The notes under the pieces are model-generated. The model saw nothing but the letters and a program-made list of their open reading frames with translations. It was not told the origin of the DNA and ran no database searches. Positions 34,452 to 60,409 of a stretch of 64,000 nucleotides of DNA are shown here, piece by piece. Origin of the DNA: Octopus vulgaris (lineage: Eukaryota); the NCBI GenBank assembly GCA_951406725.2, contig OX597842.1, forward strand, positions 28,830,001 through 28,894,000, given 5' to 3'. Made by a program: the position numbers and the translations under genes. Each line of letters starts with the position of its first letter. Positions within the stretch are counted from its first letter, which is position 1.

Positions 34452-34628
34452 TGTGTGTGTTTATGTGTCTGTGTTTGTCCCCCTAGCATTGCTTGACAAC
34501 CGATGCTGGTGTGTTTATGTCCGTGTTACTTAGCGGTTCGGCAAAAGAGACCGATAGAATAAGTACTGGGCTTACAAAAGAAAAAGTCCCGGCCGCAGTC
34601 AAATGACTGAAACAAGTAAAAGAGTAAA
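34270..34628 (+). mobile_element. Near full-length SINE family A (tRNA-like head with GGTTC box, internal (TA)/(TG) microsatellite, LINE-like tail)
   Basis: GGTTCCGGGTTCAGTCCTACTGCGTGGCACC...GGTAGACGGAAACTGAAAGAAGCCCGTCG(TA)n...GCAGTCAAATGACTGAAACAAGTAAAAGAG; a degraded partial copy precedes it (33985-34150). Confidence 0.85.
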
Positions 34629-34776
34629 TAAATATATATATATACATATAAACATTACTTTATATAATTAGGGTTCATCAAAAAATAATTTGCTTTACCA
34701 CATACCGAGCTTTTAGAAATAGCAGCCAAAGAATTTAGCTATTGGTTATATATATATTAGTTATATATATATATAG

Positions 34777-34844
34777 CATAGTTGGAAAACTGGGAGAATG
34801 GCTTCATGACTTTCTGAAAGATAGAAGTCAGGTGGTAGTAGCCA
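34777..34844 (+). mobile_element. 5' piece of a split CR1/L2-like LINE RT copy
   Basis: Encodes IVGKLGEWLHDFLKDRSQVVVA, near-identical to the reverse complement of about 4617-4686; continues at 49413. Confidence 0.9.
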
Positions 34845-34851
34845 CCTTAAG

Positions 34852-36519
34852 TGGGGCTTGATGGTTATGACCCACGAACCTTGCAATGGGTGGGTGTTCC
34901 TACTGCTCATCCACTTGGGGTGAACTTACACTAATAACACGTCTTGATACGATTTGTCCCCACCCCACCGAGTTTCGTTGGGGGCAGAAAAGATATAGCG
35001 GTTGGGGGCACCTGCGGTGTCCTATAGGAACACCGGTGTGGGTGGTGTATAGGGGGATATACACCTGCAGTGTCCGATTGGAACATTGGCAGCGAGGTGA
35101 GAGGGTGGATGCACCATCAAGTTTGTCTGGTATGTTATGATCTGCCGGGTTTAACCCGGGAGATGGATGCACTGCCAGGATTCACCCACAGGGACACTAC
35201 CTTGTCGTGGTTTAAGAGCTTACGTCTGCGGGTGGGACGCAAGCCGTTATTGGCCTTGCGGGCGCCAACCCGTCCGCAGACTAACTAAATGTGTCCTTCC
35301 CCCATAGCGGTTCCAATTAATTGGTGGGGACCAAGCAGTGTGGAGGATTATCGTGTGCAGAGTGGGATGATACCCTGCTGGTTGGTCGTGGTTGCGCTTG
35401 TCGGCCTCCTGCTCATCCGGATCGGCCACTACCTGGCATCGGTGTGGTGTGAAGGCCCCCTATTTCTATATTAGAATTTCACGGGGCGGCGCCCACGGAC
35501 GGCCAGGGTCAGAACGGCTGGGTTCGCTCTCCGGATTGGGCTGCTGACGGGGCGAGGTAGGGATGGGGTGCTTCCATCCTGCCTCTTATCTCGCCAAAAG
35601 TTAGCGCCTCGTGAAGGTTGCTGTCCCTGCTGTCCCTGGGTGGCTCACGACATTGTCTCCTGACGCCAGATTGTTGTGGCTCACACATGTTAATGTGGGA
35701 GTGGACTCACTTTTGGCCTCACTACGGGAGCCAGTCAACTGACGGGTAAACCGTCAATAATGAGCCCTGGGTGGTTCACGACATTGTCTCCTGACGCCAG
35801 ATTGTTGTGGCTCACACATGTTAATGTGGGAGTGGACTCACTTTTGGCCTCACTACGGGAGCCAGTCAACTGACGGGTAAACCGTCAATAATGAGCCCTG
35901 GGTGGTTCACGACTTTGTCTCCTGACGCCAGATTGTTGTGGCTCACACATGTTAATGTGGGAGTAGACTCACTTTTGGCCAGCATCCAGTACCTCACTCG
36001 AGAAGGGCGGCGAGGATGCCGGGTAAACTGACGGGTAAACCATCAGTATTGAGCCCTTCGCGGACTGTTGCAGGGTATTTGGCTTGGTATGCGGATTTCG
36101 GTTGGCTAGGGAGGATGTTTGCTTACGGTCTGCAGGGTTTGACTCCTTACTCTTGTACTCTTGATTTTCTTCCTTTTACTCTTGGAAAATGCCGCGAAGT
36201 CCAATTCTTCAACTAAAAGTTAAGAAACACACGGTTGCCAGGGGCCGTATAAGATGGTGGCTTGTGGGCAAAAGAGCGGGTCTCCAAGCCAGGCCGAGCG
36301 TGTTGCCCAACCACGTTGGGCCGATATCAACGCTTCCTGCAGTTGTATAGAGCCATTTACACTGCAGGTAATACTAATGGCTCACATACCTAACTCGACC
36401 CTGATAGTTTCTATCGGATCCTGCACATAAAACCCCCTCGATGAAGTCCTCAAAATTTCTTTTTTTTTTTTTTTTTTTTTTCGAGGACCGAGAGGCTGGC
36501 GTGTAGGATGCCTCTCAAT

Positions 36520-36550
<31 letters not shown>

Positions 36551-36826
36551 AGGTGGCATGGTTTGGGGGCCGTGCCTCGATATGAGCTTAAAATTAAAAC
36601 ATAAGAAAAATTAAAATAACAACCCGGATTAGACTTTCAGCTTCTTCTGCCCATCGAAAAAGCACCCGCTTCGCTGTTAGTTTTAGATCCCCACTACTTA
36701 GGTAGATTTTTGTTTTTTTTTTGTACTTTTTTCTTTTAAGATTAACACAAGCTGGGACCTGGCTGGACAGTGTGGGACAACCCACGTTAAATAAAGGGAA
36801 GGAGACACTATTTAGTCTCACTTAGA
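34852..36826 (+). mobile_element. Non-coding ~2-kb insertion at the exact R2 site of 28S (non-autonomous R2 derivative, SIDE-like)
   Basis: Preceded by 28S CTTAAG (34846-34851) and followed immediately by TAGCCAAATGCCTCGTCATC (36827); no RT ORF. Confidence 0.75.
35634..36057 (+). repeat. Three tandem structured repeats (131, 131, 158 bp) inside the R2-site element
   Basis: Units start CCCTGGG at 35634, 35765 and 35896; internal hairpins such as TGACGG-GTAAA-CCGTCA. Confidence 0.9.
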
Positions 36827-36866
<40 letters not shown>

Positions 36867-36901
36867 CGGATCAACGAGATTCCCACTGTCCCTATCTACT
36901 G

Positions 36902-36936
<35 letters not shown>

Positions 36937-36943
36937 CGGATCG

Positions 36944-36983
<40 letters not shown>

Positions 36984-37700
36984 TTTTGTGAGGGCACACG
37001 GTAGGCGTAGCATAGGCGGTAGCATTCGCGTTGCCCCGCGCCGGGCGCTGCCGTCACCGGCGGCGCGCTGGCGTGCTGTTCGTTGTCCGCACCGTCGCGC
37101 TTCGCGTGCGGCGGTCAGTCTCGTCGGTGCGCCGTGGGCGCCGTCGGCTAAGCGCGTTCGACGTCGGGGTGTCGCGCGCGTTTGCGACGATGAAAAACCG
37201 CCACTTCCGTAGTTTCCTCGCTCACTCGATGGAGAAGGGATCGGGCCGTCGCCGAGCGGTGGTTCATTATCTGGTGCGAAGCGCGCGGTGCATGTCGAGC
37301 GCCTTTGCGGGCGCCGGCGCAGCCGATGCGCGACCCTTAGTCGAGAACAGTGTCGGTCGGGGAGTTTGACTGGGGCGGTACGTCTGTCAAACGGTAACGC
37401 AGGTGTCCCAAGGCGAGCCCAGCGTGGACGGAAACCACACGTCGAGCAAAAGGGCAAAAGCTCGCTCGATCTCGATTTTCAGTACGAATACGGACCGCGA
37501 AAGCGTGGCCCATCGATCCTTTCCAAATTACAGCGGCGAGCTATGCGTCCGCCGAGAGGTGTCAGAAAAGTTATCACAGGGATAACTGGCTTGTGGCGGC
37601 CAAGCGTTCATAGCGACGTCGCTTTTTTATCCTTCGATGTCGGCTCTTCCTATCATTGCGAAGCAGAATTCGCAAAGCGTTGGATTGTTCACCCACTAAC

Positions 37701-37747
<47 letters not shown>

Positions 37748-38390
37748 TCCTACCGATGCATCGCGCGTACGCGGCGCCCCGAGTCGCGTCGGGGTACTCG
37801 GCGTGCGGTCGAGGCGGCGGCGCGCTCGCGCGTCGTCCGTCCTGGCCGTGCCGCCGGCGTTTCTCCGGCCGACCTTAGGCGGGCGTCGGCAACGTCAACT
37901 CGGCTACGGCTATCCCGTCCAGTACGAGAGGTACCGCGGGATCAGAGCAACGGTTTGCGCGCTCGCTCGATAGAGCGGTGGTGCCAGGCTGCCTCTGAGC
38001 GATAACGGCTGAACGCCTCTAAGCCGGAACCGTAGCCGGACCCGAGTTGTTTTCCAAAAGCGTCTCAACCTCAAGGCGCATGCCTTAGCTCGGCGTTCGC
38101 CGTCCGCCCGTCGCGTTCGCCGTCCGCCCGTCGCGTTCGCCGTCCGCCCGTCGCGTTCGCGCGGCGAGCGGCAGCGTCGCCGGCGGAATTGCCATTCGGG
38201 GACGCGGCGGCGACTGCGGCGTTCGCGCCGTAGTCGTCTGCTCGTCGTCCCGCCCCGACTAGTTTGAAGAGATCGAGACGAAAGGGATCGCTTGCATACG
38301 ACCCGACTTGCCGTTCGGAGTGACGTGCTTAGTAGAGCAGCTACCACACTGCGATCTATTGAGTCTCTTCTCGCGAATGACACGATCCGC
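36827..38390 (+). rRNA. 28S: 28S rRNA, 3' portion downstream of the R2 site (orphan copy)
   Basis: TAGCCAAATGCCTCGTCATCTAATTAG, GGGATAACTGGCTTGTGGC, GAGCTGGGTTTAGACCGTCGTGAGACAGG, SRL-like AGTACGAGAGG; 3' end approximate. Confidence 0.93.
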
Positions 38391-38829
38391 CCCTTCGAGG
38401 CGGAGAAGCAGGTGCAGGAGGAGGTGCGAAAGATGGCGAAAGTGTTGCGGCTGGGAGTCGGAGTTACGAAGTGTTGCGTTGCGTTGTGTCTTGTCTTGTC
38501 TGCGGCGATCGACTCGGCGCGCGGTAGTAGTCGTCGCCGTAACCGCCTTCGTCTCGGCCGCCGAATCGAGCGCGCATCGGCTTAGCAGCGCGCGCTCCGT
38601 TGCGGGTTCGTTTAAGTGAGAAGTGGAAGAAACGGCACCTCCTGTTTAGTGCGCGCGTACACGGGGTTGTGGCGCCAGCATGCGGCATTCCGGCCGTTCG
38701 TAACCTCCTGCACCGCCGACGAGTTGTTGCTCGTCGGCATCGGGCCCGAGCCCCGGTCTCGCGCAGCGACGGACAGAGTCTGAGTAGTACGCGGCGGACA
38801 CCGCGAGTGCGGGTTGTCGAAGCGGCGAG

Positions 38830-39062
38830 TTCTCGGCATCGTCGTCCGATTGGCGAGGCGCCGCGTGAACGGATCGAAGGCGAGGAGCGTGTCCCTGTCT
38901 ACTGTCTAGCGAAAGCAGAGCCGAGGGTACGGGCTTGAAGAAGTTCTCGGTATCGAGCGCGGGTAAACGGCGGGAGTAACTTCGACTCTCTCAACGGATC
39001 GAAGGCGACGAGGATATTCCCGCTGTCCCTATTTACTACTGTCTAGCGATAGCAGAGCTGAG
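38830..39062 (+). other. Degenerate rearranged copies of the 28S R2-target region within the IGS
   Basis: AGCGCGGGTAAACGGCGGGAGTAACTTCGACTCTCT at 38956-38991 and two TGTCCCT.T.TACTGTCTAGCGA copies. Confidence 0.85.
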
Positions 39063-39099
39063 TTACGACGAAGACCACGAGTGTGTGTTATCGACGCGA

Positions 39100-41190
39100 T
39101 CGAAGCGGCGATTTCACGTGCCTGGTATATCGAACGAACGCACCTAAGCTCGCGGTGTCGCCCACGGGCACCTGGACGTAGCCACGACCTATGCCGCAAG
39201 GATGTCACGAGATACACGCGGTCGATGGGGCGACGTGGTCCGTCGCGTGAATTCCCGAAAGATGACAAACTGCGGCCAGTGCAGGTATTGGCGGGCCTGC
39301 GCCAGTCGCGCGGAGCTCCGCCGCGCTGCCGTGCCCGATCTAGTGAGGCTGAAGCGAACATCAGGCTCTCGCCCACGTCAACGTGGACGTAGGCGCGATC
39401 GATGGCGTCAGTCTCCGTGGGCGTGTGGCGATACGCACCGGGTAAATGGAGCGACGTGGTCCGACCCGTAAGTCGAAGGAATCAGACCCGTATGCTTACG
39501 GGTCGGCCCCGGCTGGATAGTCACGCTCTAGGTGACCGCCGCACCCCAAGGGGGTCAAGACTATATTGAGGGCTTGCAGTCGGCAGGTGGATGTCTCCGG
39601 GACCGTTCGGAAGGCCTGCGCCGGTCGCCCGTTGCTCCGCCGCCCTACCGTGCCCGAAATCGAAAGAACGAACCTAAGCCCGCGGTATGGCCCACGTACA
39701 CGTGGACGTAGCCGCCACCGATGCCGGAAGGCGTTCACGAGATACCCGCGCTCGATACGGCGACGTGGTCCGTCCCGTAAAATCCCGAAAGATGACAAAC
39801 TGCGTCTAGCACTAGGTAGCGGCAGGCCTGCGCCAGGCCTGCGCCGGTCGCCCGAGTCTCCGCTGCCCTACCGTGCGTGAAATCGAGAGCACGAAACTAA
39901 GCGAGCGGTATCGCCCACGTACGCGTGGACGTAGCCGCGACCGATGTTGCGAGGTACAGGCGTTCGATACGGCTACGTGGTCCGTCCCGTAAATTCCCGA
40001 AAGATGACAAACTGCGGCCAGTGCAGGTATCGGCCGATAGCGGCGGGCCTGCGTCCGCCTTCGCCCGCGCCTCTGCCCGCCTTCGCCCGCGACTCCGCCG
40101 CGCTATTGCGAGGCTGAAGCGCGCCTTAAGCTAAACTTGCGCTCTCGCCCACGTACACGTAGACGTAGGCGCGATCGATGCCGTCAGTCGCCGGGAGTGC
40201 GTGGGGATATGCACCGGGTAAAAACAGCGACGTGGTCCGACCCGTGAGTAGGAGAAGGTGCTCGGACCGTGAGCAAACGGATCGGCCCCGACTGGATAGG
40301 TGACCGTCGCACCCCAAGGGGGTCAAGACTATATTGAGGGCTTGCAGTCAGCAGGTGGATGTCTCCGGGACCGTTCGGCAGGATGCCCGAGACGTTAGCC
40401 TAAGACGACGTCAGCCCGGCGGGTGGCCGCCGCCTTCGCGCCGCCTCGCTTTCTCCGTTAGTCCACGCGCAGCGGGGACGTTGGCGGCAGGCCTGCGCCT
40501 GTCGCCCGTTCCTCCGCCGCGCTACCGTGCCCGAAATCCAAAGAACGAACCTAAGCTCGCCGTATGGCCCACGTACGCGTGGACGTAGCCGCCACCGATG
40601 CCGGAAGGCGTTCACGAGATGCACGCGGTCGATACGGCGACGCGGTCCGTCCCGTAAAATACCGAAAGATGACAAACTGCGGCTAGCACGAGGTAGCGGC
40701 GGAAGGCCTGCGCCGGTCGCCCGCGTCTCCGCCGCCCTACCGTGCGTGAAATCGAAAGCACGAACTTAAGCGGGCGGTCTCGCCCACGTAAGCGTGGACG
40801 TAGCCGCGACCGATGTCGCGAGGTGCGGGCGTTCGATACGGCGACGTGGTCCGTCCCGTAAATTTCCGAAAGATGACAAACTGCGGCCAGTGCAGGCAAC
40901 GGCCGATAGTGGCGGGCATGCGCCCGCCTTCTACCGCCTTCGCTCGCAGCTCCGCCGCGCTACGGCGAGGCTGAAGTGGAGCTTAAGCGAAACTTGCGCT
41001 CTCGCCCACGTACACGTGGACGTAGGCGCGATCGATGCCGTCAGTCGCCGGGTGTGCGTGGCGATATGCACCGGGTAAAAACAGCTACGTGGTCCGACCC
41101 GTGAGTAAGGAGGTGCTGGGACCGTAAGCAAACGGATCGGCCCCGGCTGGATAGTCACGCTCTAGGTGACCGTCGCACCCCAAGGGGTTC
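39100..41190 (+). repeat. rDNA IGS subrepeat array (~220-bp subunits within ~0.8-0.85-kb higher-order units)
   Basis: GTGGACGTAGCC...GTGGTCCGTCCCGTAAA..CCGAAAGATGACAAACTGCGGC occurs five times; GGTGACCG.CGCACCCCAAGGGG occurs three times. Confidence 0.9.
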
Positions 41191-41215
41191 CAGACTAATA
41201 TGTAGGGTTGTGGTT
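41140..41215 (+). promoter_or_regulatory. Putative RNA Pol I gene promoter/initiation region, with spacer-promoter duplicates at about 39510-39575 and 40285-40345
   Basis: Repeated block ends in AGACTATATTGAGGG twice and AGACTAATATGTAGGG in the last copy before the unique ETS; resembles invertebrate TATA..RGGG Pol I start sites; inference. Confidence 0.5.
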
Positions 41216-42535
41216 GATCGGCATAGGTTACCGTCTCGGAGGGATGTCCTCGTAGCTCCTTTTCTGACGACGGTTAGCTCCCCGTTTGCCGGTGCAAGAT
41301 CGACTCTACACGGCCGGCGCGTCCTCGAATTTCCGCCGCCGAACCGCCCGCCTTTCAGACGCTGCGTTCGCCCGCCCGTTGACGCCCGCGTTTGCCCGCC
41401 TTCGCCCGCCTTTTGAAGCTCGCCTTCATCCGCCTTCGCCCGCCTCTGGACGTCCGCTTCTTCACGCCCGCCTATTAGACGCTGCGTTCTACCCGCACCT
41501 TTCGACGCACGCCTTCGCCCGCCTTCGCCCGCCTTCGCCCGCCTTCGCCCGCCTCCGAACATCCGGAGGCGGGCGAAGGCTGGCGCGTCCTCGAATGTCT
41601 GCCGCCGCCGCCACACCGCCCGTCTTTCAGACGCGCTCCCTCGACGCCCGCGTCTGCCCGCCTCTTCACGCCCGCAGGTTCGTCCTCTCGCAATCGAACC
41701 GCTTCTCGTTACCGCGTTTTTTTTTCTTCCGACCCCCGGCCTCGTCTTCGCAGCCGAGGACCCGGTCAGGTTACGCCGCTGACCTCGTGTTGCGTCGCCG
41801 CCGGCGCGGCGGACGGGCTAGCCGTCGCTTCCCGTTCCCCCACAGGCGACGCGGCGTCTCCGAAAGAGAGCGGTGCCGTGTCTGTCCCCTTCTTCCCTAG
41901 ACAGAACCGTGGCTTCAACTCCGGGTTTCGCTGCCTCGTAGCGTTTCTGCAGCTTTTTTTTCCCTTCCCGGCATCACCCCGCCTTGGCGCGCGTCGTTTT
42001 CGTGGCGACCACCGTCATGGCATTCGCTCGTTGACCGCAGTCCGGACGCAGTTCGTCGCAGCCGTTTCGAAAGGATCAGGTGGAGGAAGCGACGACGACC
42101 ACCGACGCATAGGGCGCCGGGCGAGTCTAAAAGCTGCAGCGGGCCCGCGCCAATCGCCGCTGCCCCTCTCGTCTGCCGACCTAGTCGCTGGCCTTCTTCG
42201 CCTTCTCCTCCTCTTCCGCCCGTAACCGGCCCCACTTCAAATCGACCCGCACCGGAGCCCGTCCGCAGCGGCCCCGGTGTGCGGCAGTCGGATCGCAAAC
42301 CGCTTTTGCTCCGCGAACGCTTCTTCGCGCGTCGACTCGTGTTGTTTTCGCCTCTTTTCCTCCTCGGGGAGGAGGCGCGCGCGTATACGAACGGCGGCCG
42401 AACTCGTGAGCGCCCGTGCCCCTGTTTTCGGCCCCTCCGATTCCTTTCGTTCTCGTTTTCGTTTCCGATCGTCGGCGCTGCTTCCCGAGCTTCCGCCGCC
42501 GCCGCGCATCGTTCTCTCGAAACGTACGTCGGTGA
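41216..42535 (+). other. 5' external transcribed spacer (includes GCCCGCCTTC-type short repeats)
   Basis: GC-rich unique sequence between the last promoter-like block and the 18S start. Confidence 0.65.
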
Positions 42536-44155
42536 TACCTGGTTGATCCTGCCAGTAGTCATATGCTTGTCTCAAAGCTTAAGCCATGCAAGTGTAAGTT
42601 CATGCCGTAAACGAATGGTGAAACCGCGAATGGCTCAGGAACCGGACCTAATCCTCGGGACCGTATTCTTCCACCGCGAGGAGAGTGGATAACTGTGGCA
42701 ATTCTAGAGCTAATACATGCAACCGAAGCCGCGATCGCACGTCGCACCCGGGTGTCGGGCTCGAAAACGGCGTTCGGCAGCCGTCGCGTCTTCGCCGTCG
42801 TTCGCCGCCGGCGTCCGCTCGGCCGGTTCGGGGGCGGCGCATCCGCGCCCGTCCCTCCCGGTCGCGACGATACGGTCGGCCTTCCGCATTGGTCGCGGCG
42901 CAAATATTAGACTGAGACCGACGCGTTCGGGCCGTCGCAGCCGCCGCCGCGCCTTCCGCGCGCGGGTCTTAGGCGTGCGGCGGCTTCACGCCCTTCGATT
43001 TTGGTGACTCTGGATAACTGTCAGTACGATCGCACGGGCTAGTATCGCACTAGCCTTCGCGCGACGGGTCCCCCGCGAGTCCGCCCTATCAACTGTCGAC
43101 GGCCCGGTCAGTGCCGACCGTGGTGGCAACGGGTAACGGGGAATCAGGGTTCGATTCCGGAGAGGGAGCATGCGAAACGGCTGCCACATCCAAGGAAGGC
43201 AGCAGGCGCGCAAATTACCCACTCCCGGCACGGGGAGGTAGTGACGAAAAATAACGACGCGGGACTCTGTCGAGGCCCCGCGATCGGAATGAGTACACTT
43301 CAAATCCGTTAACGAGAATCGACCGGAGGGCAAGTCTGGTGCCAGCAGCCGCGGTAATTCCAGCTCCGGTAGCGTATATTAAAATTGTTGCGTTTGAAAA
43401 GCTCGTAGTCGGAATTCGGGTCTCGAAAACGTGCCCCAGCACGTTCGGGGCGACGGCGCCGTCGCAGGCGCGCTTCTGGCGCGTCCGCTTCGGTCGTCCG
43501 TTCGCACTCCCGGCCCTATTCGCGACTCGGCACCCCGTCCAGCGCTCGTCTTCGCCCGCGCCGCGTCGCGTCCGGTTTCACGCCTGCGCCTTCAACGGCG
43601 CGGGTCGGTCAGGCGCGCGCGGGAGCCACGAGGCGGGTGCGCTATTGGGCGTCGTCGCCGTTCGCGTTCTAGCGGTAGTAGCGCGTCCATCTCCCGGTCG
43701 TTTCGGCCCGCACGGTTCCTCCGAGGGTGCTCTTCGCCGAGTGTCCGAGGCGGCCGGTACGTTCACTGTGAAAAAATTAGAGTGCTCAGAGCGAGCCCCG
43801 CCGGCTTGCATACGAAAAGCATGGAATGATGGAAAATGGCCTCGTCCGCGCGTCATCCGTCGGTCTCCGTTCACGACGAGGCAATGATCGAAGGGAGCGA
43901 TCGGGCCACTCGTATTGCGACGTTAGAGGTGAAATTCTTGGATCGTCGCAAGACGCACTGCAGCGACGGCGTGTGGCAAGCACGTTTTCCTCGATCAAGA
44001 GCGAAAGTCGGAGGTTCGAAGACGATCAGATACCGTCGTAGTTCCAACCGTAAACGATGCCGACTAGCACTCTGCGAGTATTCGCTTCGATGACCCGGCG
44101 GGGAGCCTGCGCGGGAAACCATAGTCGGTTCCGGGGGGAGTATGGTTGCAAAACA

Positions 44156-44201
<46 letters not shown>

Positions 44202-44880
44202 GCGGCTTAATTTGACTCAACACGGGAAAACTCACCCGGTCCGGACACCGGTAGGATTGACAGATCGATAGCTCTTTCTCGATTCGGTGGATGGTGGTGC
44301 ATGGCCATTCTTAGTTGGTGGAGCGATCCGTCTGGTTGATTCCGATAACGAACGAGACTCCGGCCTGCTAATTAGCGCGTCGATTAGTGCTTTTCCGGTA
44401 GCGCGGCGGAGCCGAAGCCGTCGTCGGTAGCTCCGCGCGCGGCCCGGGCTTGCCGTTGCCGCCGCTCTCCTTCGCGTCCGGCGCTGCGGCCGCGTCCGGC
44501 TGCCGTCCCCCTCGCGGGGGCCGTCGCGGCGTGGTTGCGGCGTCGGTTGCGGAGCGGCGGCGGTGACCCGTCGGCTCGGCCCGCGCGAGCCCGGCGGCGG
44601 CACGCCGACGCGTCCGGGCCAGTCGGTTGGCGAACGCAGCGCTTCTTAGAGGGACGGGCGGCAGAAAGCCGCACGAGGCGGGGCGATAACAGGTCTGTGA
44701 TGCCCTTAGATGTCCGGGGCTGCACGCGCGCTACACTGGAGGTATCAGCGGGCGCGTCTCCCCCGGCCCGAGAGGGTCGGGAAACCTCTGAACCACCTCC
44801 CGTGATAGGGATCGGGGCCTGGAGCCAACCCCGTGAACGAGGAATTCCCGGTAGGCGCGGGTCATCAGCCCGCGTCGATC

Positions 44881-44923
<43 letters not shown>

Positions 44924-45080
44924 GGAACGGTCCGGTGAGGTCCTCGGATCTGGCCGACGAGTCCGCTTACGCGCGGCGGCGTTCCGCGCCGTCGTCGGCA
45001 TTCCGCGCCGTCGTCGGCGTTCCGCGCCGTCGTCGGCGCGTTCTCTGATGGCCCGGAGAAGACGACCGAACCCGATCGCT

Positions 45081-45138
<58 letters not shown>
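42536..45138 (+). rRNA. 18S: 18S rRNA (expanded, about 2.6 kb)
   Basis: TACCTGGTTGATCCTGCCAGTAGTCATATGC start; GTGCCAGCAGCCGCGGTAATTCC; TTGTACACACCGCCCGTC; GTAGGTGAACCTGCGGAAGGATCATTA end. Confidence 0.97.
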
Positions 45139-45567
45139 GCGCCGTCTTCTTTCGAAAACGCAAACTTGCGATCCGCCCAATTTCTTCCAAGTCGCGGCCG
45201 GGCCCCCTCGCCCGAGTACCACCGAATGCTCTTGTTTCGGCCCTCTAACAGCGCAGCAGTAGCAGTCGCGGCAGCCCGCCGACACGCCGCACTCTCTGCT
45301 GCCGACCGCGCAACCACCCTGCCGGCGTCGGCCCGCCCTCATGGCGCTCGGACGACGGGGCTTGCACGCTTTGCGAGCTCCATGACCATTTCTCTCTTCC
45401 TTCCTACCTCGCCGTTGGCGTCGGCAGTGGCGCGCTTCGTTCCGCTGTCGACGCCTACGAATTTTATTTTAATTTTTCCGTCGCGCGGCGGCGGCCTCCT
45501 GTCGGGGGCCGCTGCCGCTTTCCTTTTTCTGTACGTGTAGCGTGTAGTAGTAGTAGCAAATATACCG
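45139..45567 (+). other. ITS1
   Basis: Lies between the 18S end and 5.8S start. Confidence 0.85.
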
Positions 45568-45728
45568 AAACCCTGGACGGGGGATCACTCGGCTCGTCCG
45601 TCGATGAAGAGCGCGGCTATCCGCGTGAACTGATGCGAATTGCAGGACTCAGTGAACATCGACACCTCGAACGCACATTGCGGCCCCGGGATCCTATCGT
45701 CCCGGGGCCCCGTCTGGTCGAGAGGCGG
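45568..45728 (+). rRNA. 5.8S: 5.8S rRNA
   Basis: GGATCACTCGGCTCGTCCGTCGATGAAGAGCGC...GAATTGCAGGAC..GTGAACATCGAC..CTCGAACGCACATTGCGGC; ends approximate. Confidence 0.93.
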
Positions 45729-46201
45729 TCAAGACACGAAAACGCAGTCCGCCGCGGCCGTTGGCTGCGGCGGGGAGTCGGGAGTCGCAGGAAAGGGCGG
45801 CGCTCGCCGCGAGGCCCGCATTATCTCGCGCGCGTGCCGCCGCCGCTCGATCGTCCGTCTCCCGTAATGCCAGACCGTCATCGTTGCGAAGCGCTGTTGC
45901 GGAGGAGGGAGCCCGCCGACGAGCGGAAGCAGAGGAGTAAGGATGATCAGTAGCAGGAACGACAACGGCGGCGACACGGCGAGGCCCCTCGTCCCTCCGC
46001 GTCCTCCTCTACGTTCCCCTCCGAGCAACCGCCGCCCTCCGTCGCCGTCGCTGCCGCCGCCGCCTCGTCTTTCGGCGTTCGCTCTGTGGGAATATCTCTT
46101 TCGTGCGAGCGTTCGTGCCGATCGACAGCGGTGGTGCGCCGGTAGCAAGCTGCGGCAGCCGTCTCTTTTGCAGCGGGGAACTCTTCCTTTTTTTTCACGC
46201 T
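45729..46201 (+). other. ITS2
   Basis: Lies between 5.8S and 28S. Confidence 0.85.
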
Positions 46202-47439
46202 GCCCTCGACTCGGACGCGATTACCCGCCGAACTTAAGCATATCGCTAAGCGGAGGAAAAGAAACCAACCGGGACTCCCTAAGTAACGGCGAGTGAACCG
46301 GGAGAAGCCCAACGCCGAATCTCGTCGGTCGCAACGGTCGTCGAGAGCTGTGGCGCAAGGGTCGTACACGGTCGATCGTTTCGCCCGGCTAGGTTCGGAG
46401 TCCCCTCGATCGGGGCTGCCCAGAGCGGGTGCCAGGCCCATTCGGAGCCGGCGGCGATCGGCGGTGTTCATCGGCCCGAGAGTCGGGTTGCTTGGGAACG
46501 CAGTCCAAAGCGGGTGGTAAACTCCATCTAAGGCTAAATACGGGGACGAGTCCGATAGCCGACAAGTACCGCGAGGGAAAGTTGAAAAGAACTTTGGAGA
46601 GAGAGTTCAAGAGACCGTGAAACCGCCCAGGGGTAAACGGGTAGGACCGCTCACCGCGATCGCGAGGCGACTCAGTCCGCTGCTTCCCGCCGAGGCGCCG
46701 TCGTCGTCGACGAACGCGCCGGTGGCGGCCGCTCGTTCCGCGGGCGGAGGTCTGCCGCCTCGTCGGCGTTCGATTTCCGGGGCGCCGGCATCGGACGCAC
46801 TTCCCCTCCGATCCGTCGTCGCGACTCGTTTCCCGTCGGGCCGGTAGGCGCGCGGCGTCCGCAGGTCGCAGACGAGAGCCCCGTCGCTGCCGCGCAAGCG
46901 GCGGTCGGTGGGATCCACGCGCTCTTCTCGACCGGGCCCGTCGCTCCACGTAAAGCGCAGGCACGGCTAACCGACGGAGACGGGCAAACGCACCTCGCCC
47001 TTAGCACGAACGACGCAGCGAGTCGCGCGCGGCCTCTTCGGAGGTCGTGAGCGACGCGGCCGCCCGCGCGCCGCGACTGCGCGGAACCCTCGCAAGGGGG
47101 CGACGCGCGTTGCGGTCGCCGTACACCCCGCCCGAAAAGCCGCCCGCTGCTGCCGGTCAGCGACGAGCATCGGCAACCTACCCGACCCGTCTTGAAACAC
47201 GGACCGAGGAGTCCCAGTCGACTGCGAGTCGTTGGAGCCTTTCACTTCGCGAACTCCGACGGCACAGCGAAAGCGAGACGGCGCTCTGACTCAGGTGTAG
47301 CAGGCGGCCGGGGACCCGAAAGATGGCGATCCACGCCCGGTCGGGACGAAGCCAGAGGAAACTCTGGTGGAAGTCCGAAGCGCCTCTGACGTGCAAATCG
47401 ATCGTCGGAACCGGGTGTTGGGGCGAAAGACCAATCAAG

Positions 47440-47485
<46 letters not shown>

Positions 47486-49334
47486 CGCCAGCGGGAGAAT
47501 GACACGCAATTCCGTCCGGTAAAGCGAACGACTGGAGGCCCCGGGGACGTTGACGGCCTCGATCTACTGTCGAACTCGGGACGGGCGAAACGGGCCGCTC
47601 CTCTCCCGATCGGAGGCGGCCGCCGTTATGCGACGACGAATGCACGGTGCCAAGTGGGCCACTTTTGGTAAGCAGAACTGGTGATGTGGGATGAACCGAA
47701 CGTCCGGCTAAGGTGCCCTACGCTTCACCCATTAGATCCCCGAAAGGGTGTCGGTCGATATAGACAGCAGGACGGTGGCCACGGAAGTCGGAATCCGCTC
47801 AGGAGTGTGTAACAACTTACCTGCCGAATCGACCGGCCCCGAAAATGGATGGCGCTGGAGCGAGCGACCGATGCCGGACCGGCCGGGCGACAGGTTGCGC
47901 GATCGCCGGCGAGGCGACTTTCCGATGCCCGGTCGAGTAGGAGGGCGCCGCGGCGTGCATGGAAAGCCGCGGGCGCGAGCCCGGGTGAAGCCGACCGCGG
48001 GTGCAGATCTCGGTGGTAGTAGCAAATATTCGAACGAGACCTTCGAAGACCGAAGTGGAGAAGGGTTCCGTGCCAACGGTGGTCGAGCACGGGTCAATCG
48101 GTCCTAAGAAGCGGGCGAAAGCTTCCACGAAAGGCGCCGGATCCGTCGTTAGAAAACAAGTACTACTCCCATAGTTCGACGTAAGTTACGCGGCCGGCCT
48201 CGCATCGAAAGGGAATCGGGTTAATATTCCCGAACCCGAACTCGGAGAGTGCCCGTCCGTCGGTGGGAACGCGGCATGCTCTTCCTAGCAGCGCGTCCGT
48301 CGTCGAAGCCGGCGGCCGGGCGAAGCAGCGGCAACGCAAGCGAGCCCGGAGACGTTGCCGGGAGCCCCGGGAAGAGTTCTCTCTTCTTCGTAAAGGACCG
48401 CGTCCGTGGAATCGGCTCGTCCGGAGATACGGATATGGTACCTGTAGAGCGCCGCGTCTCGGGCGGCGTCCGGTGCGCTCTCGGCGACCCTGGAAAATCC
48501 GGGTCCGTAACGAATCGCAGCTCTCGAGTCGGTCCGTACCCACCATCCGCAGCAGGTCTCCAAGGTATACAGCCTCTTGTCGATAGCGCCAATGTAGGTA
48601 AGGGAAGTCGGCAAAATGGATCCGTACCTTCGGAAGAAGGATTGGCTCCGAGGACCGAGTCGGTCGGGCCGTGTGTGTCGCCTCGCTCCCGCGCGGTCGC
48701 GTCGCCGTTCGCTCGGCGTCGCGCCGCCGGGCGCCGGAACACGTCTTCACGCGAAGCGGCGGACCGGTACAGGGCTGTAGCGTTGGCGTCGGACTCGGCA
48801 TCCCGGTGCGCCCCATTTTTCCGACGGTCGTCGCTGCGTTGGCGGGCAACCCGCTTCGCCCCGATGCGCGGTCGCGCCTTCGGTCAACGCGGGTCGGCTT
48901 CTACGCACGCGTTCTCTCCCTCCGCTGCGCTGCGTTCTGTCGCGTGCCGCCGCCTACGGACCTCTCGGTCCGGAAAGAGCGCGCGTTGCTGGGACGTCGT
49001 TGCGGCTGCCAGATCCGCGCGCGTGGCCTTCTCGTGCGTCGGCACGTGCGCAGGCCGTCGTTCGTTGCGGTGGCTCGGTTTCATACGGGGCGCCCGGGGC
49101 GTAGTGGGCGCGAACAAAACGATTCCACACACGGGACGCCGTGGAGCGACACGGCTTCGGGCTCGCCGTCGCGTCCGTGCGCGCACGGCTCGGCTCCGCA
49201 AGGGGTCGGTCGTCGTCGCGCGACAGGCGTTCGGCCGGCGGCGAACGGTCGACTCGGAACTGGTACGGACCGGGGGAATCCGACTGTCTAATTAAAACAG
49301 AGCATCGCGTAGCCGGCCGAGCCGCACAGACGCG

Positions 49335-49366
<32 letters not shown>

Positions 49367-49412
49367 AGTGAAGAAATTCAACCAAGCGCGGGTAAACGGC
49401 GGGAGTAACTAT
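46202..49412 (+). rRNA. 28S: 28S rRNA, 5' portion, ending 13 nt upstream of the R2 site
   Basis: ACCCGCCGAACTTAAGCATATC, GACCCGTCTTGAAACACGGACC, and terminal AAGCGCGGGTAAACGGCGGGAGTAACTAT. Confidence 0.95.
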
Positions 49413-50091
49413 TTAACATGCAAACAGTGAGCGGTGTTCCACAGGGCACTGTTTTGGGACCACTACTGTTCATAATGGCCCTCTCAGACATGCCCTCAGC
49501 CACACAGAGAGCCACAATCACAAGTTATGCAGATGATACAAAAGTTTCACAGGCAATACAGAACCCTGAGGACACTAAACGCCTGCAATGTGAGCTGGAC
49601 AAAATATACAAGTGGGCTGAAAAGAATAGCATGCAGTTCAATGCTGAAAAGTTTCAAGCTTTATACTATCAGCATGCAAAACTAAATGCAATACCCAATG
49701 AATACACTGGACCCAGAGGAATAGCAATCCCAGAAGCACAATCAGTGCGTGACCTGGGTATTTACATGAGTGATGACGCAACCTTTCGTGTACATGTTGC
49801 TAAATTGGCAATGAAATATAGACAACTGGCCGGATGGATTCTTAGAACCTTTAGAACAAGAGAACAAGAAACCATGATGGTCCTCTGGAAGACACTTGTC
49901 CTAAGCCACTTTGACTATTGCTCTCAGCTATGGTCACCATCCAGTGTCAAGTTGATCACAGAACTTGAGGCGATCCAACGTAGCTACACGAAGAAGATAA
50001 CCTCTGTGCAGAATGTAAGCTACTGGGAAAGACTCAAGAGATTAAAGCTCTATTCCTTGGAGCGTAGGCAAGAAAGATATGCCATAATATA
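49413..50091 (+). mobile_element. Continuation of the split CR1/L2-like LINE RT
   Basis: ORF 49418-50110 (SGVPQGTVLGP...YADD...LYSLERRQERYAII) resumes the RT broken at 34844. Confidence 0.93.
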
Positions 50092-51730
50092 CACTACCGT
50101 CAGAAATTAATTAGCACCCTTGATTTTCTCTTCACTCAAGGTATTTGCTGTCACCTAGTGGCCATATCTCGAACTATTGCTTTGTTGTGAGTTCACTGTT
50201 GCGCAGAACGATGACGTAACTTTGTTTGCAGAGCAGTTTGAGAGTCTACAGCCTAATGATGTTGACATAGCAGTGCAACAACAACTTGGAGTGCGGATGC
50301 AGACAAATCTTCCTTTGTTTAATAGATATAGGTAGCGCCTCGCAAGGACCGAAATCACACCGTACTAAGTTTTCTCATCGCGTAAGACATTTTGAACAGC
50401 TCGTAGGTTAAATGATTTGTGTATTTGCAAGATTTTTTTCCTCACAAATTCTCCTACACTCTGCTTGATGACGTCACTTCTGGTTCACAAAACTTTCTGT
50501 TAAACATCAAATAAGGTGAGAAATTCTGCTTTCTTTCTTTTTTGTTTAATGAATAATAACTCATAGCAGTTTTGTTATAGCATAACATTATTCAAATGAA
50601 TAGTTTTAATGAAAATAACTGGTTTTTATCGTTCATTCCTAGATAGGCCCAAGACCTCGCATGACCTTGGAGAGATGGTACGAGGCTCTCTCGTGGCGTG
50701 GGAAGCTGTCGGAGGCTGCAATAGCCAGAAAACTTGGTGTAGCCAGGCGCACAATTCAGTGCTTATTTAAGAAATACGAGGAAACTGGATCAGCAGCTGA
50801 CAAAAAGGGTAGGGGACGGAAGAGGCTGACGACCCAGCGGGAGGACCGGATGCTGATCCGAAAGTCGCTGTACAACCGAAGGGCAACGAGCCAGCAACTG
50901 GCGGAGGAGATGCAAAAGATGACAGGGAAGCAGTTGTCTACAACCACCGTCAAGACCAGATTACTGGAAGCTGGTCTAAAATCCTGTAGGGCCGCTCCTT
51001 ACAGCCCAAAACTGGAAGAGGCGGCTGCTCTGGGCCCGTGCCCACAAGACATGGACCGTGCAGCAGTGGTGGACAGTGATGTTCACTGACGAGTCGCGAT
51101 TCAGTCTCGTCAGTGACAAGCCTGTCCATGTGCGACGCCGCAGGGGTGAGTGCTTCAACAAAGACTGCATTGCTCTCACCATGAAGCATAGTGGGGGTGG
51201 TCTGATGGTGTGAGGGGCGTTCAGCTACAGTGGTGTTGGGCGGTTCTATGCCGTCGAAGGCAACATCAACGCAGCAAAGTGCGTTGAGATAATACGGGAT
51301 ACCTCTTTGGTGGCGAGGAGTACGTGCTCCAACAGGACAACGTGCCTTCCCACACAGCCAAGCTCACAACCGGTTTCTTCAAGGACCATGGGGTGACAGT
51401 CATGGACAGGCCTGGCCAGTCACCTGACCTGAACCGACACTAGCTGTTTGGGGCACTTCTTGCTGCATGGAGGGCCATCCCTGCACAGTACCTGCAGGCA
51501 CTCATAGACAGCATGCCGACCCGCGTAGCAGCTGTCATTGCTGCCAAAGGAGGAGCAACAAGATATTGACTAAATTTCACGATTAATAACAATTATGTGG
51601 TGTGCTGGGATATGTTTTAATAAATTTTTGATTATAAACGAGTTCGTTTCTGATAATAAGTTAATTAAATTAAGAAAATGTAAGAAAATGTAGAAATTTG
51701 AGAAGTGCTAATTAATTTCCGACGCAAGTG
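50092..51730 (+). mobile_element. Tc1-like DNA transposon (defective transposase), TA target duplication
   Basis: TA|CACTACCGTCAGAAATTAATTAGCAC ... GTGCTAATTAATTTCCGACGCAAGTG|TA; HTH ORF 50661-51089, FTDESRF, QQDN and SPDLN motifs; frameshift, stop and deletion of the catalytic Glu region. Confidence 0.92.
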
Positions 51731-54241: not shown

Positions 54242-54337
54242 TTAGATCCTGGAGAGCTGATGTAAGAGGTTTGATGGTAGTATGGCTTCGAGGTTTTCTA
54301 TGAGGCAGCTGACTGGAAGATACATCCATCCCAGGAC
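54242..54337 (-). CDS. ST7: ST7 terminal coding exon
   Basis: ttcAG|GTC...; VLGWMYLPVSCLIENLEAILPSNLLHQLSRI*; matches the ST7 C-terminus (LPS..HQL.RI). Confidence 0.85.
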   Translation of the reverse strand, partial: VLGWMYLPVSCLIENLEAILPSNLLHQLSRI

Positions 54338-55614
54338 CTGAACAGAGAGAACACAAATATAATCACAGTAATAATAATAATTTCTAGCATAAGCACAAAT
54401 CCTGGATTTTGTGGGGAGGGAGACGGTCGATCACATTGACCCCAGTACTCAACGGGTACTTAATTTATCAACTCCGAAAGAATGAAAGGCAATTGAATAC
54501 AGAATGCTGCTAATTATTTTGCCTGGCGTACTAACGATCCTGCCAGCTCACTGCCTTGATACTATTGGGACCTGGGAATATTTCACAGAATAAATGGTAA
54601 ATTTATTGGGTTATTTCTGGAAACTTTATTCTCCAAAAATCTGAAAGCGTAACCTGAGTTGTGTCTGTATCAAAAGATAGACCCTCATCTGCTAATCATT
54701 GAAAAGTGAAGGAAACTGGAATATGATGATTACTTAATGAACTTTATATACTTCATGCACAATTTTTTAGACTTAATAGGCAACACTCATAGAATAAATA
54801 TTTGCACTTATTTTCCGCTTTTTTTCCATTAGGGAATAAAAAAATTACATTTCAAAATTTACATGGTCACACTTTCCTATAAAGAAAACAAAAATGATTT
54901 TAGATGTAAAATATAGGGGTCACAGTCTCACAGTGGTAAAAATTTAACGCAACATGGGTATATTCTGAAAACCACATCATTGGTTATATATAAGCCAAGA
55001 TGAGGGGACAGAGCCAATACATATTTCAATTTGCATACAGCTTTCATTTCACCAGCATCACCATCATCTCTCTCTCTCTCTCTCTCCCTTTCTTTAACCT
55101 CACCATTAGAACATCTGCTAAAATTATACTCCTAACTCTCCTCCTCAGTAACACGACCTTCAACTAACTTTTTTAACCACATAATAAATATTATGTACCC
55201 GCCACCTCATATCATGGACGCTTCTCTCTCCCTCTTTCTGTCTCACACTTTGCCTTATCTTCTTTTTTACCTTTTTCTTTGTTCTTCTTGTTCTCTCATT
55301 CCCTTCAACTAATCATATGAAAGCGTAACAATTATTTTCCCTCTACCTCATGCCATGGACGCTTCTCTCTCCCTCTTTTTCTCTCACTCTTCAAACTTTC
55401 TTTTCAGCTAATCGCATGAAAGCATTACAGACAAGCTAAATGAGAAACAGAATTATAGTAATAATAATTGTTTCAAACTCTAGCACAAGACCAGCAATTC
55501 CAGGGGGGGTGGCAGGTAAGTCGATTACATCGACCCCAGTGCATAACTGGTACTTATTTCATCAACCCAGAAAAAATGAAAGGCAAAGTCGACTTTGGTG
55601 GAATTTGAACTTAC

Positions 55615-55754
55615 CGTTTTAGCAACAGTTCCCATGGGTTCTGGGTACTGGTGTGTGAGGAGTGCAAGGAGTGCTGTGAAGGAACAGAGACCGGCTGTGA
55701 AGAGGATGAAGAATGGAAGTTCCTTTTTGGGGTACACAGACACTTCATGGAAGG
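55615..55754 (-). CDS. ST7: ST7 exon
   Basis: [47 protein letters not shown]; canonical AG/GT. Confidence 0.95.
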
Positions 55755-56129
55755 CTGAAATAATAATAATAATAATAACAGTAACAATAAAGTTTGTTTA
55801 CTGATTGACATAAGCATACCCTGCGACCATAATATCTTGGCAAAAGAATTTGATAAGCCCAGAAAATATAAATTAAAAATTTAATAAAAATATAAACATA
55901 TTTATTAACCAAAAAGTTATCAAAGAAGGCAAAGTTAGCAAAACGATGGTTATATCACTCCCAGTGCACACATATCTGCATCTCATAAACCAAGCATCAA
56001 AAAAGGTAAGATTTGTGAAACCAGTGTTTAGCTTTGAAGATGTCATCAATATTTGCTTTGGAAATGGTGCTTTCAAAGGTTCATCAGTCAACCTCATTCA
56101 ATGTTCTGACTTGACTTTCTTTTTTTTTT

Positions 56130-56482
56130 CTTTTTTACTTGTTTCAGTCATTTGACTGCGGCCATGCTGGAGCACTGCCTTTAATCGAGCAACTCGACCC
56201 CGGGTCTTATTCTTTTGTAAGCCCAGTACTTATTCTATCGGTCTCTTTGCCGAACCGCTAAGTAACGGGGACATAAACACACCAGCATCGGTTGTCAAGC
56301 GACGTTGGGGGGACAAACACAGACAAACAAACACACATATATATATATATATATATAACGGCCTTCTTTCAGTTTCCATCTACCAAATCCACTCACAAAG
56401 CTTTAGTCGGCCCGAGGCTATAGTAGAAGACACTTAACCAAGGTGCCATGCAGTGGGACTGAACCCGGAATCACAGCCACTT
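56130..56482 (-). mobile_element. SINE family A copy
   Basis: Reverse complement of the 34270-34628 family. Confidence 0.85.
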
Positions 56483-56639
56483 CATTCTTCATTTTTGAAA
56501 ATGTTTGCTGCTCACAGACCTAAGTTGTTCCAAACACTGATGCCACAGCAGAGGCACAGTGCAGTGGCATGCCAGAGACCTCATAGGATGTAGTTTGGTG
56601 ATCCCTGCTCTACATGGTCTCTGTTGATTTATCAACCAC

Positions 56640-57157
56640 TGTGTAAAAGGATTCGAGCGAGGTCGTTGCCAGTACTGCCTGACTGGCCCCTGTGCCGGTA
56701 GCACATAAAAAACACCCACTACACTCACGGAGTGGTTGGCGTTAGGAAGGGCATCCAGCCGTAGAAACTCAACCAGATCAGATTGGAGCCTGGTGCAGCC
56801 TCCTGGCTTCCCAGACCACGGTCACACCGTCCAACCCATGCTAGCATGGAAAGGGGACGTTAAACGATGATGATGATGATGAACAACCAGCAGTGAGACT
56901 GTTTTTAGCAGATCCCAAAACAGGATTCAGATCCCCATGGATTTAAGTTAAGGGTTCTTGTCTTGTGAGTTCCAGTGACCTTACTACTGCACTTAGTCCT
57001 CTCTGTGAAGTGGTTGGCATCAGGAAGGGCATCCAGCTGTAGAAACTCTGCGGATCAAAACTGGAGCATGGTGCAGCCATCTGGTTCGCCAGCCCTCAGT
57101 CAAAACCGTCCAACCCATGCTAGCATGGAAAGCGGACGTTAAATGATGATGATGATG
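56640..57157 (+). mobile_element. Two SINE family B copies (about 56640-56880 and 57005-57157)
   Basis: Shared GTTGGC.TTAGGAAGGGCATCCAGC...AACCCATGCTAGCATGG...(GAT)n. Confidence 0.8.
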
Positions 57158-57659
57158 TGCTAAGAGATGTGCTGTTGAAATCAAAACACCTCAGTCAGAT
57201 TTCAACTCAAAATGCTAAGAGCCAACTCGTTTCTTGATTGTATTCTTTCATTCATAATCTCAGAAAAGGCACAGAAACCAACTTGAAGACAGCAAGTTTG
57301 GCTTTTTTTACCAACCTCTCCTTTTCTCAGGATTTAATGCTAGAACTTGACTCTCCCAGAGGATCCCTGGAGTAATGTTACCTGACATGGTGCATAGCTC
57401 AGATATCAGGGATTCTCTCCAAGTTGAGCCCCTACCTCTTCAGATTGAGAGGTCCCGGTTTCAAAAATATTTGTGATGTGATTAGAATGTCAGGAAGGAA
57501 TTGTAAGAGGGCTTCTCCGAGCTAAGCCAATGGGCAGGAGATGAAGGGGTAGGTTAAGAACAAAATGGTTGGATAATACCCTTAGTCACAGGGAGTCTCT
57601 CCAGTCCCAGCAGTTACTTTGCTACAATGAGAGGTCACAGCAGCAGTATTTGGGACATA

Positions 57660-57982
57660 ACCAGTGCCGGTGGCACGTAAGAGAACCATCCGAACGTGGC
57701 CGTTGCCAGCACTGTCCCGACTGGCCTCTGTGCCGGTGGCACGTAAGAGAACCATCCGAACGTGGCCGTTGCCAGCACTGCCCCGACTGGCCTCCGTGCC
57801 GGTGGCACGTAAAAAGCACCGACTACACTCACAGAGTGGTTAGCGTTAGGAAGGGCATCCAGTTGTAGAAACACTGCCAGATCAGGCTGGAGCCTGGTGC
57901 AGCCTTTTGGCTTCCCAGGTCCCTGGTCGAACCGTCCAACCCGTGCTAGTGCGGAAAGCGGATGTTAAACGATGATGATGAT
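57660..57982 (+). mobile_element. SINE family B copy with internal 66-bp tandem repeat
   Basis: GTGCCGGTGGCACGTAAGAGAACCATCCGAACGTGGCCGTTGCCAGCACTG occurs twice, then the tail. Confidence 0.85.
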
Positions 57983-58329
57983 TAGAATACAACAAAAGAA
58001 TTGCAAGATGGTTTCTTCAGGCAGAATGATCCAGCAGGAGTCCTGGGGGTAGAAGAAGAAATGGAATGGTTGGATGACATCCAGTCTCAGATGGTCGTTC
58101 TTGGAAAGTAGAAAGATGGTTGCTTCTGATAGGACACGATGGAGGAGGGACCTGAGGTCTCTTACCTCAAAAATCCCCCCAGGAGTAGTGGTGGAGAAGA
58201 CGAATGAATGGATGGATGGACGTAAAGAGTCATAATAAAACACCACAGGAGATTTTGTCTGATGCTCAACCGGTTATTTTGTTGATAATTTGATGATTCT
58301 AGGAAAAAGAATTCAGCAGAGGTACTTAC

Positions 58330-58422
58330 ATGGTAAAAGTTCTCTATCAATGCTTTCTGTACAGGTGGGGTAGGGATAAAAAAGGTGACCCTTCTCTAAA
58401 GGATAAGGGATCATACGGAAAG
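58330..58422 (-). CDS. ST7: ST7 exon
   Basis: [31 protein letters not shown]; 93 bp, phase 1-1, canonical splice sites. Confidence 0.95.
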
Positions 58423-58714
58423 CTGTGGAGAGAGAAAAGAGAAACAGCTGTTATTACAGAATGAATTGACCCTTTAGCATTCAGATTACTCTGTCAAATC
58501 TAATCCTTATTTATTTCCCCAGTTTTGAATTAATCATGGATTATCTCATAACTTTCAGTTTTCAATGATGTGATTGTTTAGTTTTAAAATGGCATTGCAT
58601 GGTAAGTGTAAGAAGGCTGATCTGGCTAGTTTGGGTAAAAAACAGGTTCAATATTAGGGACCCAGATATAGCTGGCTTAAATGCTAAAAGGAGATATGTA
58701 TATATATATATGTA

Positions 58715-60055: not shown

Positions 60056-60409
60056 GCTGATGCTGCTGGAGGCACATGAGGAGCTCTTTTTGAGTGATGG
60101 CCTAATGGAAGTAATGACCAACACCTTTGGCATCATGTCGTGCCTGAGAAGACCCATCAAGCTGAGTAAAATCGCTGACATGGAAGATACTGGTATCACG
60201 CGAATGGCAACCATGCTGGTGGCACATAAAAGGATCTGTTACACTCTTGGAGCGGTTGGTGTTAGGAAAGGGCATCTAGCCATAGAAAACCCTGCCAAAT
60301 CAGACTGGAGTCTGGTGCAGCTTTCCAGCCTTGCCGGCCCCAGTGAAACTGTCCAACCCATGCCAGCATGGACCATGGATGTTCAATGATGATGAATGTT
60401 TTTGGCTGT

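Follow-up and report, generated by a model that had tools for sequence, protein, structure and literature searches.

Introduction

Circle integration, ectopic recombination and transposition have been proposed as routes for jumps of ribosomal DNA (rDNA), none of them studied in detail (PMC10257491, 2023). The spread of rDNA by integration of extrachromosomal circles has been described (PMC10257491, PMC10946416), and the retrotransposons R1 and R2 have been judged unlikely to mobilise rDNA in the species studied (PMC10257491). R2 ribozymes are reported to cleave in the upstream 28S, 9-36 nt from the insertion site (PMC3774820), and A-clade R2, after reverse transcription and the second-strand nick 2 bp upstream, leaves two protein-held ends awaiting host repair (PMC12180492). 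Here, we describe a 64,000-nucleotide stretch of the Octopus vulgaris genome (the window; C29:28830001-28894000) in which a whole rDNA unit, permuted to open at the R2 site within 28S and headed by a non-autonomous R2 derivative, is inserted in a long interspersed nuclear element (LINE). SIDEs, upstream-cleaving R2 ribozymes, rDNA circle integration and R2-induced breaks have each been published already; a link between R2 integration and rDNA dispersal is apparently undescribed, and no published description of R2-headed permuted rDNA units was found in a search that left subscription journals outside. The available parts of two R2 surveys (PMC13188248, PMC5035012) contain no mention of octopus or other cephalopods.

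Results

A permuted rDNA unit headed by an R2-family element

Coordinates are positions in the window, negative positions such as -9 are counted from the R2 insertion point in 28S, and the genome searched comprised 2.8 Gb in 227 contigs. The insert occupies 34845-49412 (14,568 bp), starting with CCTTAAG and ending with GGGAGTAACTAT. Alignment of the host to a paralog (3922-4685) shows the LINE reverse transcriptase (RT) stopping at 34844 and resuming at 49413, with 15 host bases gone at the insertion point (Table 1). These bases are the usual continuation of the LINE family and are the same in contigs from three other samples. No target-site duplication (TSD) is present, the longest direct repeat between the two flanks being 4 nt, and the window contains no N characters. 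The interruption of the LINE, the loss of about 15 nt, the missing TSD, the length and both ends of the insert, and its location between two genes had all been proposed in an earlier note made from the sequence alone, and each was confirmed.

The LINE variant ending GTAGCCA is the family majority (1,239 versus 149 exact matches), which led us to reject duplicated 28S as the source of the TAGCCA preceding the junction. The host site (34838-34858) looks like the downstream half of the R2 target, possibly by chance. The first six letters of the deleted host bases are also those of the element start, again possibly by chance, this LINE stretch having >1,300 exact copies.

After CCTTAAG come 1,975 bp of non-rDNA (34852-36826) and then TAGCC at 36827, the exact 28S R2 site, from which the insert continues with the 28S 3' part, spacer, 18S, 5.8S and the 28S 5' part up to -14 (Rfam order LSU 3', SSU, 5.8S, LSU 5'). 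The earlier note had read the insert as a single circularly permuted unit whose joined ends rebuild the R2 target; the permuted order stands, but CCTTAAG and GTAGCC are not contiguous, and the insert is an R2-family element plus one unit. Its rDNA measures 12,586 bp, compared to 18,359 bp for the array unit (C20), and is colinear with unit bases 1-18346, including all rRNA genes, with fewer subrepeats in the spacer and the first internal transcribed spacer (ITS1) and several internal deletions. The marks of a retroposed rRNA pseudogene or a 3' transduction were not found: there is no TSD or tail, and the intergenic spacer (IGS), external transcribed spacer (ETS) and both ITS are kept. One permuted unit, a small end loss and no TSD, as a one-unit circle would leave, were observed in the window (1-18346) and at two further loci, on C5 (1-18354) and C1 (12225-12219). 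The same three features are shared with published rDNA circle integration (PMC10257491, PMC10946416); what sets the insert apart is its opening at an R2 5' junction and the element at its head.

Table 1. Features of the insert and of the adjoining host LINE, in window coordinates.
Feature	Position	Strand	Remarks
Host LINE 5' piece (RT region), end GTAGCCA	34777..34844	+	98.5% identity to paralog 4618-4685
Insert left end, remnant of 28S -9..-2, predicted ribozyme P1 5' strand	34845..34851	+	start -9 to -5 by parse
Non-autonomous R2 derivative (SIDE-like), 1,975 bp, in R2 site	34852..36826	+	colinear R2-lineage matches
Predicted HDV-like ribozyme core	35192..35296	+	P2a 35192-35197, P3/L3 35199-35211, P1 3' strand 35212-35218, P2b 35291-35296
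131-bp tandem repeat x2.6 within element	35634..35980	+	
3'-terminal motif common to autonomous R2 3' untranslated regions, directly before TAGCC	36770..36826	+	
28S 3' part, from +1 of R2 site	36827..38388	+	
Degenerate copy of 28S R2 target region in spacer (pseudo-target), also in array unit	38865..39060	+	
IGS subrepeats, shorter than those of the present array	39117..41207	+	
5' external spacer region	41578..42535	+	approximate boundary
18S rRNA gene, pseudogene, 27 private substitutions	42536..45138	+	Rfam
5.8S rRNA gene	45569..45727	+	Rfam
28S 5' part, end at -14 of R2 site	46224..49412	+	
Host LINE RT 3' piece	49413..50093	+	94.9% identity to paralog 3922-4602; RVT_1

Further whole units outside the array

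At C5:100914796-100937950, an R2 with an intact 1,311-aa open reading frame (ORF) heads unit bases 1-18354, starting at -1 and ending at -6. The unit is 0-0.4% from the array and its right flank is single-copy. The autonomous R2 copies of the C20 array (1,276 aa) and C5 each have a single long ORF with RVT_1 and occupy the 28S R2 site; three Cys/His motifs and a Myb-like stretch, recognised by eye, would place both in the three-zinc-finger type. Each of the two permuted units (window and C5) carries one element and no stack. The view of the earlier note that R2 machinery defined the ends of the insert, offering a route for whole units, gains from the R2-family element at the head of the insert and from the same build with an intact R2 on C5. 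Another whole inserted unit (C1:41379406-41399469) runs from base 12225 round to 12219, opened in 18S with 5 bases lost, and suggests one-unit circles; it has an element in a normal junction and one internal inversion.

The spacer pseudo-target lies at about bases 2060-2275 of the array unit. Element 3' ends occur at the pseudo-target on C14, C18 and C20 (11.44 Mb), an inverted element lies beside it at C1:148.63 Mb, and a deletion on C28 has fused it to upstream 28S. Ten bases at the C5 left junction also match it, through templated addition or chance. The pseudo-target may be a decoy site sparing 28S; no published description of an IGS copy of the R2 target was found, with subscription journals again outside the search.

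The element and its family

No remnant of an R2 ORF was detected in the element (no ORF >93 aa; best tblastn E value 1.5). It is colinear with the 5' region and 3' untranslated region of a second, decayed 5.3-kb R2 lineage (C18), its matches jumping from about 1.3 kb to 4.95 kb and skipping the ORF of that lineage; its 3' end shares a 35-nt motif (89%) with the array R2, versus matches of 56-118 nt with the second lineage. The family has 51 matches in the genome (11 near-full at the 5' end; 8 contigs), several of which immediately follow an upstream 28S target that is intact. Across independent insertions the 5' junctions vary and the 3' junctions are fixed, the pattern of spread by target-primed reverse transcription (TPRT). 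In the RT region, the second lineage and the array R2 share about 57-60% of their amino acids; at C18:79.80-79.85 Mb this lineage forms head-to-tail stacks with the short element at one site.

Judged by its sequence, the element is a SIDE. It shares with the published SIDE (PMC3414825) the absence of coding capacity, the exact 28S R2 site, an R2-like 3' end, a 5' ribozyme resembling that of hepatitis delta virus (HDV; here predicted), variable 5' junctions and an autonomous R2 alongside. It differs in length (1,975 bp versus 529 bp), in a P1 stem that uses upstream 28S (-9) across a J1/2 of about 340 nt, in having no poly(A) at the 3' junction, in its several subfamilies, and in the many octopus copies outside the array, one of which heads a whole displaced unit.

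A predicted ribozyme and the RNA 5' end

Using the HDV nomenclature of PMC3774820 for P1, P3, L3 and J1/2, a motif common to the element and R2 was parsed as P2a-P3-L3-P3-P1b with J4/2 and P2b downstream, and its P1 3' strand is complementary to 28S -9 to -3, about 340 nt upstream. Both P1 strands co-vary in three subfamilies (CUCUUAA/UUAAGAG, CUCUUAC/GUAAGAG and CUCUUUC/GAAAGAG). Over nine aligned copies, 98.3% of 180 cells are paired, with two P1 pairs changed on both sides, compared to 28-51% pairing for slid partners; 0 of 500 shuffles reached the pairing score, a control that overstates significance because the copies are related. The model predicts a cut at -9 for the element and at -11 for array-type R2, 5' of a C. 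Its P1.1 would be one G-C pair, which we take to be reversed relative to HDV. As in the R2 ribozymes of PMC3774820, the P1 5' strand comes from 28S and the reported 9-36 nt range includes both predicted positions; the C at +1 and the single-pair P1.1 set the prediction apart from them. A cut 5' of G(-13), which the earlier note had placed at the right end, is at odds with these predicted positions and was set aside, no complementary P1 strand following P3. A hairpin near 34890-34915, picked by eye as a ribozyme, was dropped as a misfit to the HDV topology. An Rfam E-value scan of the element returned no ribozyme family and three weak unrelated matches.

The 5' ends of nine element copies outside a 28S context fall at -9 exactly (n = 3), -9/-10 (n = 2) and -7 (n = 1), with one ambiguous and two lacking the P1 strand (3' tails were examined for three of the nine short-tailed loci). 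On this model, the left end of the window insert is at, or a few bases from, the RNA 5' end, and no ribozyme cut falls at its right end (-14). The earlier note had offered a unit RNA bounded by two ribozyme cuts: a read-through transcript from the cut of the element via the 28S end, spacer and next unit to the next cut, reverse-transcribed into a break. The window ends (about -9 and -14) would be compatible with a -9 cut plus trimming, and elements with short 28S tails do occur at ectopic sites, yet the C5 right end (-6) lies beyond both predicted cuts and contradicts such an RNA, a 15-23 kb unprocessed transcript would be needed across the terminator region and both ITS, and there is no tail and no TSD, leaving this route quite improbable.

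Origin of the unit ends

In the explanation that we place first, at an even chance, R2 integrated into rDNA of one-unit length, probably circular, without its 5' junction being sealed, and end joining inserted the linear product into a chromosomal break. Element RNA would be cut from the 28S co-transcript at -9, as the covariation suggests; R2 protein acting in trans would nick an empty 28S target, reverse-transcribe the RNA onto the downstream end and, following known R2 chemistry, nick the top strand near -2. With a circle of one rDNA unit as target, or an array unit also broken at a distance of one unit, the product would be linear, its ends being the cDNA end (about -9) and the trimmed upstream 28S end (-14). 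Not sealed as a normal 5' junction, these ends would have entered a double-strand break within the LINE by end joining, with 15 host bases lost and no TSD, and the captured unit would then have decayed in place as a pseudogene. The C1 unit, with its opening in 18S, speaks for a linearised circle, one of the options in the earlier note; this option needs an added step, an R2 reaction that opens the circle and supplies the element.

Several observations support this explanation. The window and C5 ends can be read as two halves of an unsealed 5' junction, one end being the presumed cDNA end and the other upstream 28S stopping in the junction range; at ordinary R2-family 5' junctions, upstream 28S stops at -14 to -1 and R2 frequently lacks a few bases at its 5' end, so that both right ends (-14 and -6) lie within the ordinary range. 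The arrangement of element at the head and upstream 28S at the tail occurs at two independent loci, the window left end lies inside the P1 5' strand with -9 the commonest of the nine element 5' ends, and each permuted unit has a single element, with element subfamily age tracking rDNA age across the genome (young with young, old with old). The upstream target is absent at the left junction, making a later insertion of the element implausible if target recognition is as described for R2 (PMC12180492).

The unlikely but nearest competitor is re-cutting by the R2 endonuclease: an element-bearing unit would be cut at its 5' junction, in a circle or along with the next unit's site, and the linear DNA captured at a break. 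The known top-strand nick at -2 falls between the C5 ends (-1, -6) and the stacked elements on C18 are occupied sites that were re-targeted, while the window left end has 28S bases to at least -5, probably -7, upstream of the -2 nick, which goes against endonuclease cuts alone as the earlier note had listed them. Re-cutting would need a pre-existing duplicated junction, of a type given in PMC3774820, that is not visible at the window.

Genome-wide census

Dispersed rDNA was searched for with three queries shorter than the insert, for which 40 of 216 (18S), 40 of 104 and 40 of 375 candidates were scored. Upstream-target matches numbered 31, of which 30 were read; the array accounted for six empty sites and one R2. 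Outside the array, 21 of the 23 matches ran into an insert (17 R2-family, 4 without family assignment) and two into host DNA (window and C5), such that none of the 23 examined was an empty R2 site, compared to six of seven assembled array sites. Downstream matches numbered 25, and 16 of the 18 outside the array were preceded by the R2-family 3' motif. Of 16 dispersed pieces examined whose rDNA amounts to about 4 kb or more, 14 carry R2-family DNA and the other two have the site deleted. The 18S query, which is blind to R2, found ten near-full matches outside the array among the 40 of 216 candidates scored (seven with an element, two with the site deleted and one lone 0.9-kb fragment). Many small rDNA fragments without R2 also occur in the genome. 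A Fisher test (6/7 versus 0/14 empty, p = 1.3e-4) was not relied on, in view of a probable collapse of the array and the lack of independence among loci. That R2 retrotransposition does most of the exporting of rDNA units in this lineage, by way of unsealed R2/SIDE intermediates and linear or circular unit-length rDNA, is a tentative reading that we hold below an even chance; it would explain the 14 of 16 pieces with R2-family DNA, the two without a site and the lack of any empty one.

The enrichment could alternatively reflect capture of circles independent of R2, in which element-bearing units were excised, broken in some other way and integrated, the R2 junction being a fragile or coincidental opening and orphan units a sink filled by R2 and not purged by homogenisation. 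Circle integration is an accepted route (PMC10257491, PMC10946416), the C1 unit is opened in 18S, most large pieces end elsewhere with deletions, and the assembled array shows just seven sites. The probability that a unit-size circle opens at random within 15 nt of the R2 junction is about 1-2 in 1,000, and two openings within 15 nt of one site are seen, the second among six other near-circular inserts having a chance probability of about 0.01 under our own classification; further, a sink would have no way to fill junctions from which the upstream target is missing. This origin is improbable for the two units, and a sink may explain some of the enrichment, not the junctions of the window insert and C5.

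Other arrangements were seen at related loci. At C29:25.64-25.68 Mb, blocks of about 200 bp of upstream 28S are each followed by one of two alternating insert types, one of them without family assignment. R2-family elements at C9:109.88 Mb and other loci occupy non-rDNA sites, flanked on one side or both by just 30-1,000 bp of 28S, and at C33:210-233 kb, >22 kb of reverse-oriented IGS subrepeats lie beside a rearranged unit with a 5'-truncated R2.

Comparison with other samples

Of the sequencing runs searched, the best shared 0.41 of its words with the left region and none reached half. Four runs were compared with 34460-35630, and neither a record across the junction nor a locus-specific empty allele was found in them. 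Two contigs (95-102 nt) from other samples match this element copy without difference, while the genome copies compared differ by at least 4. Assembly graphs branch exactly at R2 sites, and a collapsed rDNA contig broken at the branch between inserted and empty sites could have been joined into a repeat; the flanks are high-copy LINE and no record in the four runs spans a junction. Against such an artefact, the rDNA of the insert differs from the array by 1.1-3.3% of bases by segment, 27 of 37 differences in 18S are private, and the insert has therefore aged in place, as a misplaced array contig would not. The element differs by 6.5-15% from 11 other copies and is matched by the two contigs, both flanks continue one LINE in register with no Ns, and the C5 right flank is single-copy. 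An artefact is thus very improbable, and the insert is very probably real.

Setting of the locus

In a scan of 132 of 171 candidate frames, the genes flanking the insert were an ankyrin+RING gene (+), presumably Mind bomb-like, and ST7 exons (-), with exons converging on the insert from 7309-22488 (+) and 54245-61307 (-), respectively. The right piece of the LINE is truncated by a Tc1/mariner-type element at about 50091-51500 (HTH_Tnp_Tc3_2). At 1.5-1.8 kb to the left of the insert, 33028-33070 matches the element (43 bp, 95%) and 33275-33350 matches the 3' end of 28S in reverse (76 bp, 82%). An (AT)n tract of 1.5 kb occupies 431-1923.

Discussion

The closest parallel for an R2-related break is the recovery of rDNA copy number in Drosophila (Nelson et al. 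2023, as cited), where an unsealed R2 intermediate is, as proposed here, the rDNA-rearranging break; that process expands the array from within, whereas here a whole unit was exported to a non-rDNA locus. Drosophila R2 copies outside the rDNA (PMC2718515) resemble those of octopus in lying outside the array and being diverged from array copies. They differ in being mostly incomplete and not in a 28S gene, with no attached whole unit mentioned in the available part of that paper.

A number of points weigh against an origin of the units by unsealed R2 integration. There are two cases only, the window being the ascertainment case, and all of the evidence comes from one assembly, in which the array shows seven sites. 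Most large dispersed pieces open away from the R2 site. The C5 unit starts at -1, 10 nt short of the predicted RNA end, where re-cutting at -2 fits equally; the window left end requires a 1-nt deletion or trimming of 2-4 nt; and three of the nine element 5' ends (one ambiguous, two without the P1 strand) misfit -9. Circles are suggested by a single locus (C1) that itself has an internal inversion, and the left junction of the window was spanned by no record in any of the four runs.

The movement of rDNA clusters between chromosomes is an open question, to which the window and C5 contribute base-resolved products that tie circle-like units to R2 integration. They provide a signature that can be searched for in long-read assemblies: the unit begins with an element and finishes in 28S between -14 and -2. 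R2 proteins serve as tools for placing transgenes in rDNA, and an unsealed 5' junction with a whole unit landing elsewhere is a natural outcome worth seeking in such systems. On C5, an R2 with an intact ORF was taken out of the array within a complete unit. If R2 is what chiefly exports rDNA units in this lineage, an empty-site unit or multimer leaving in this way could found a new nucleolar organiser.

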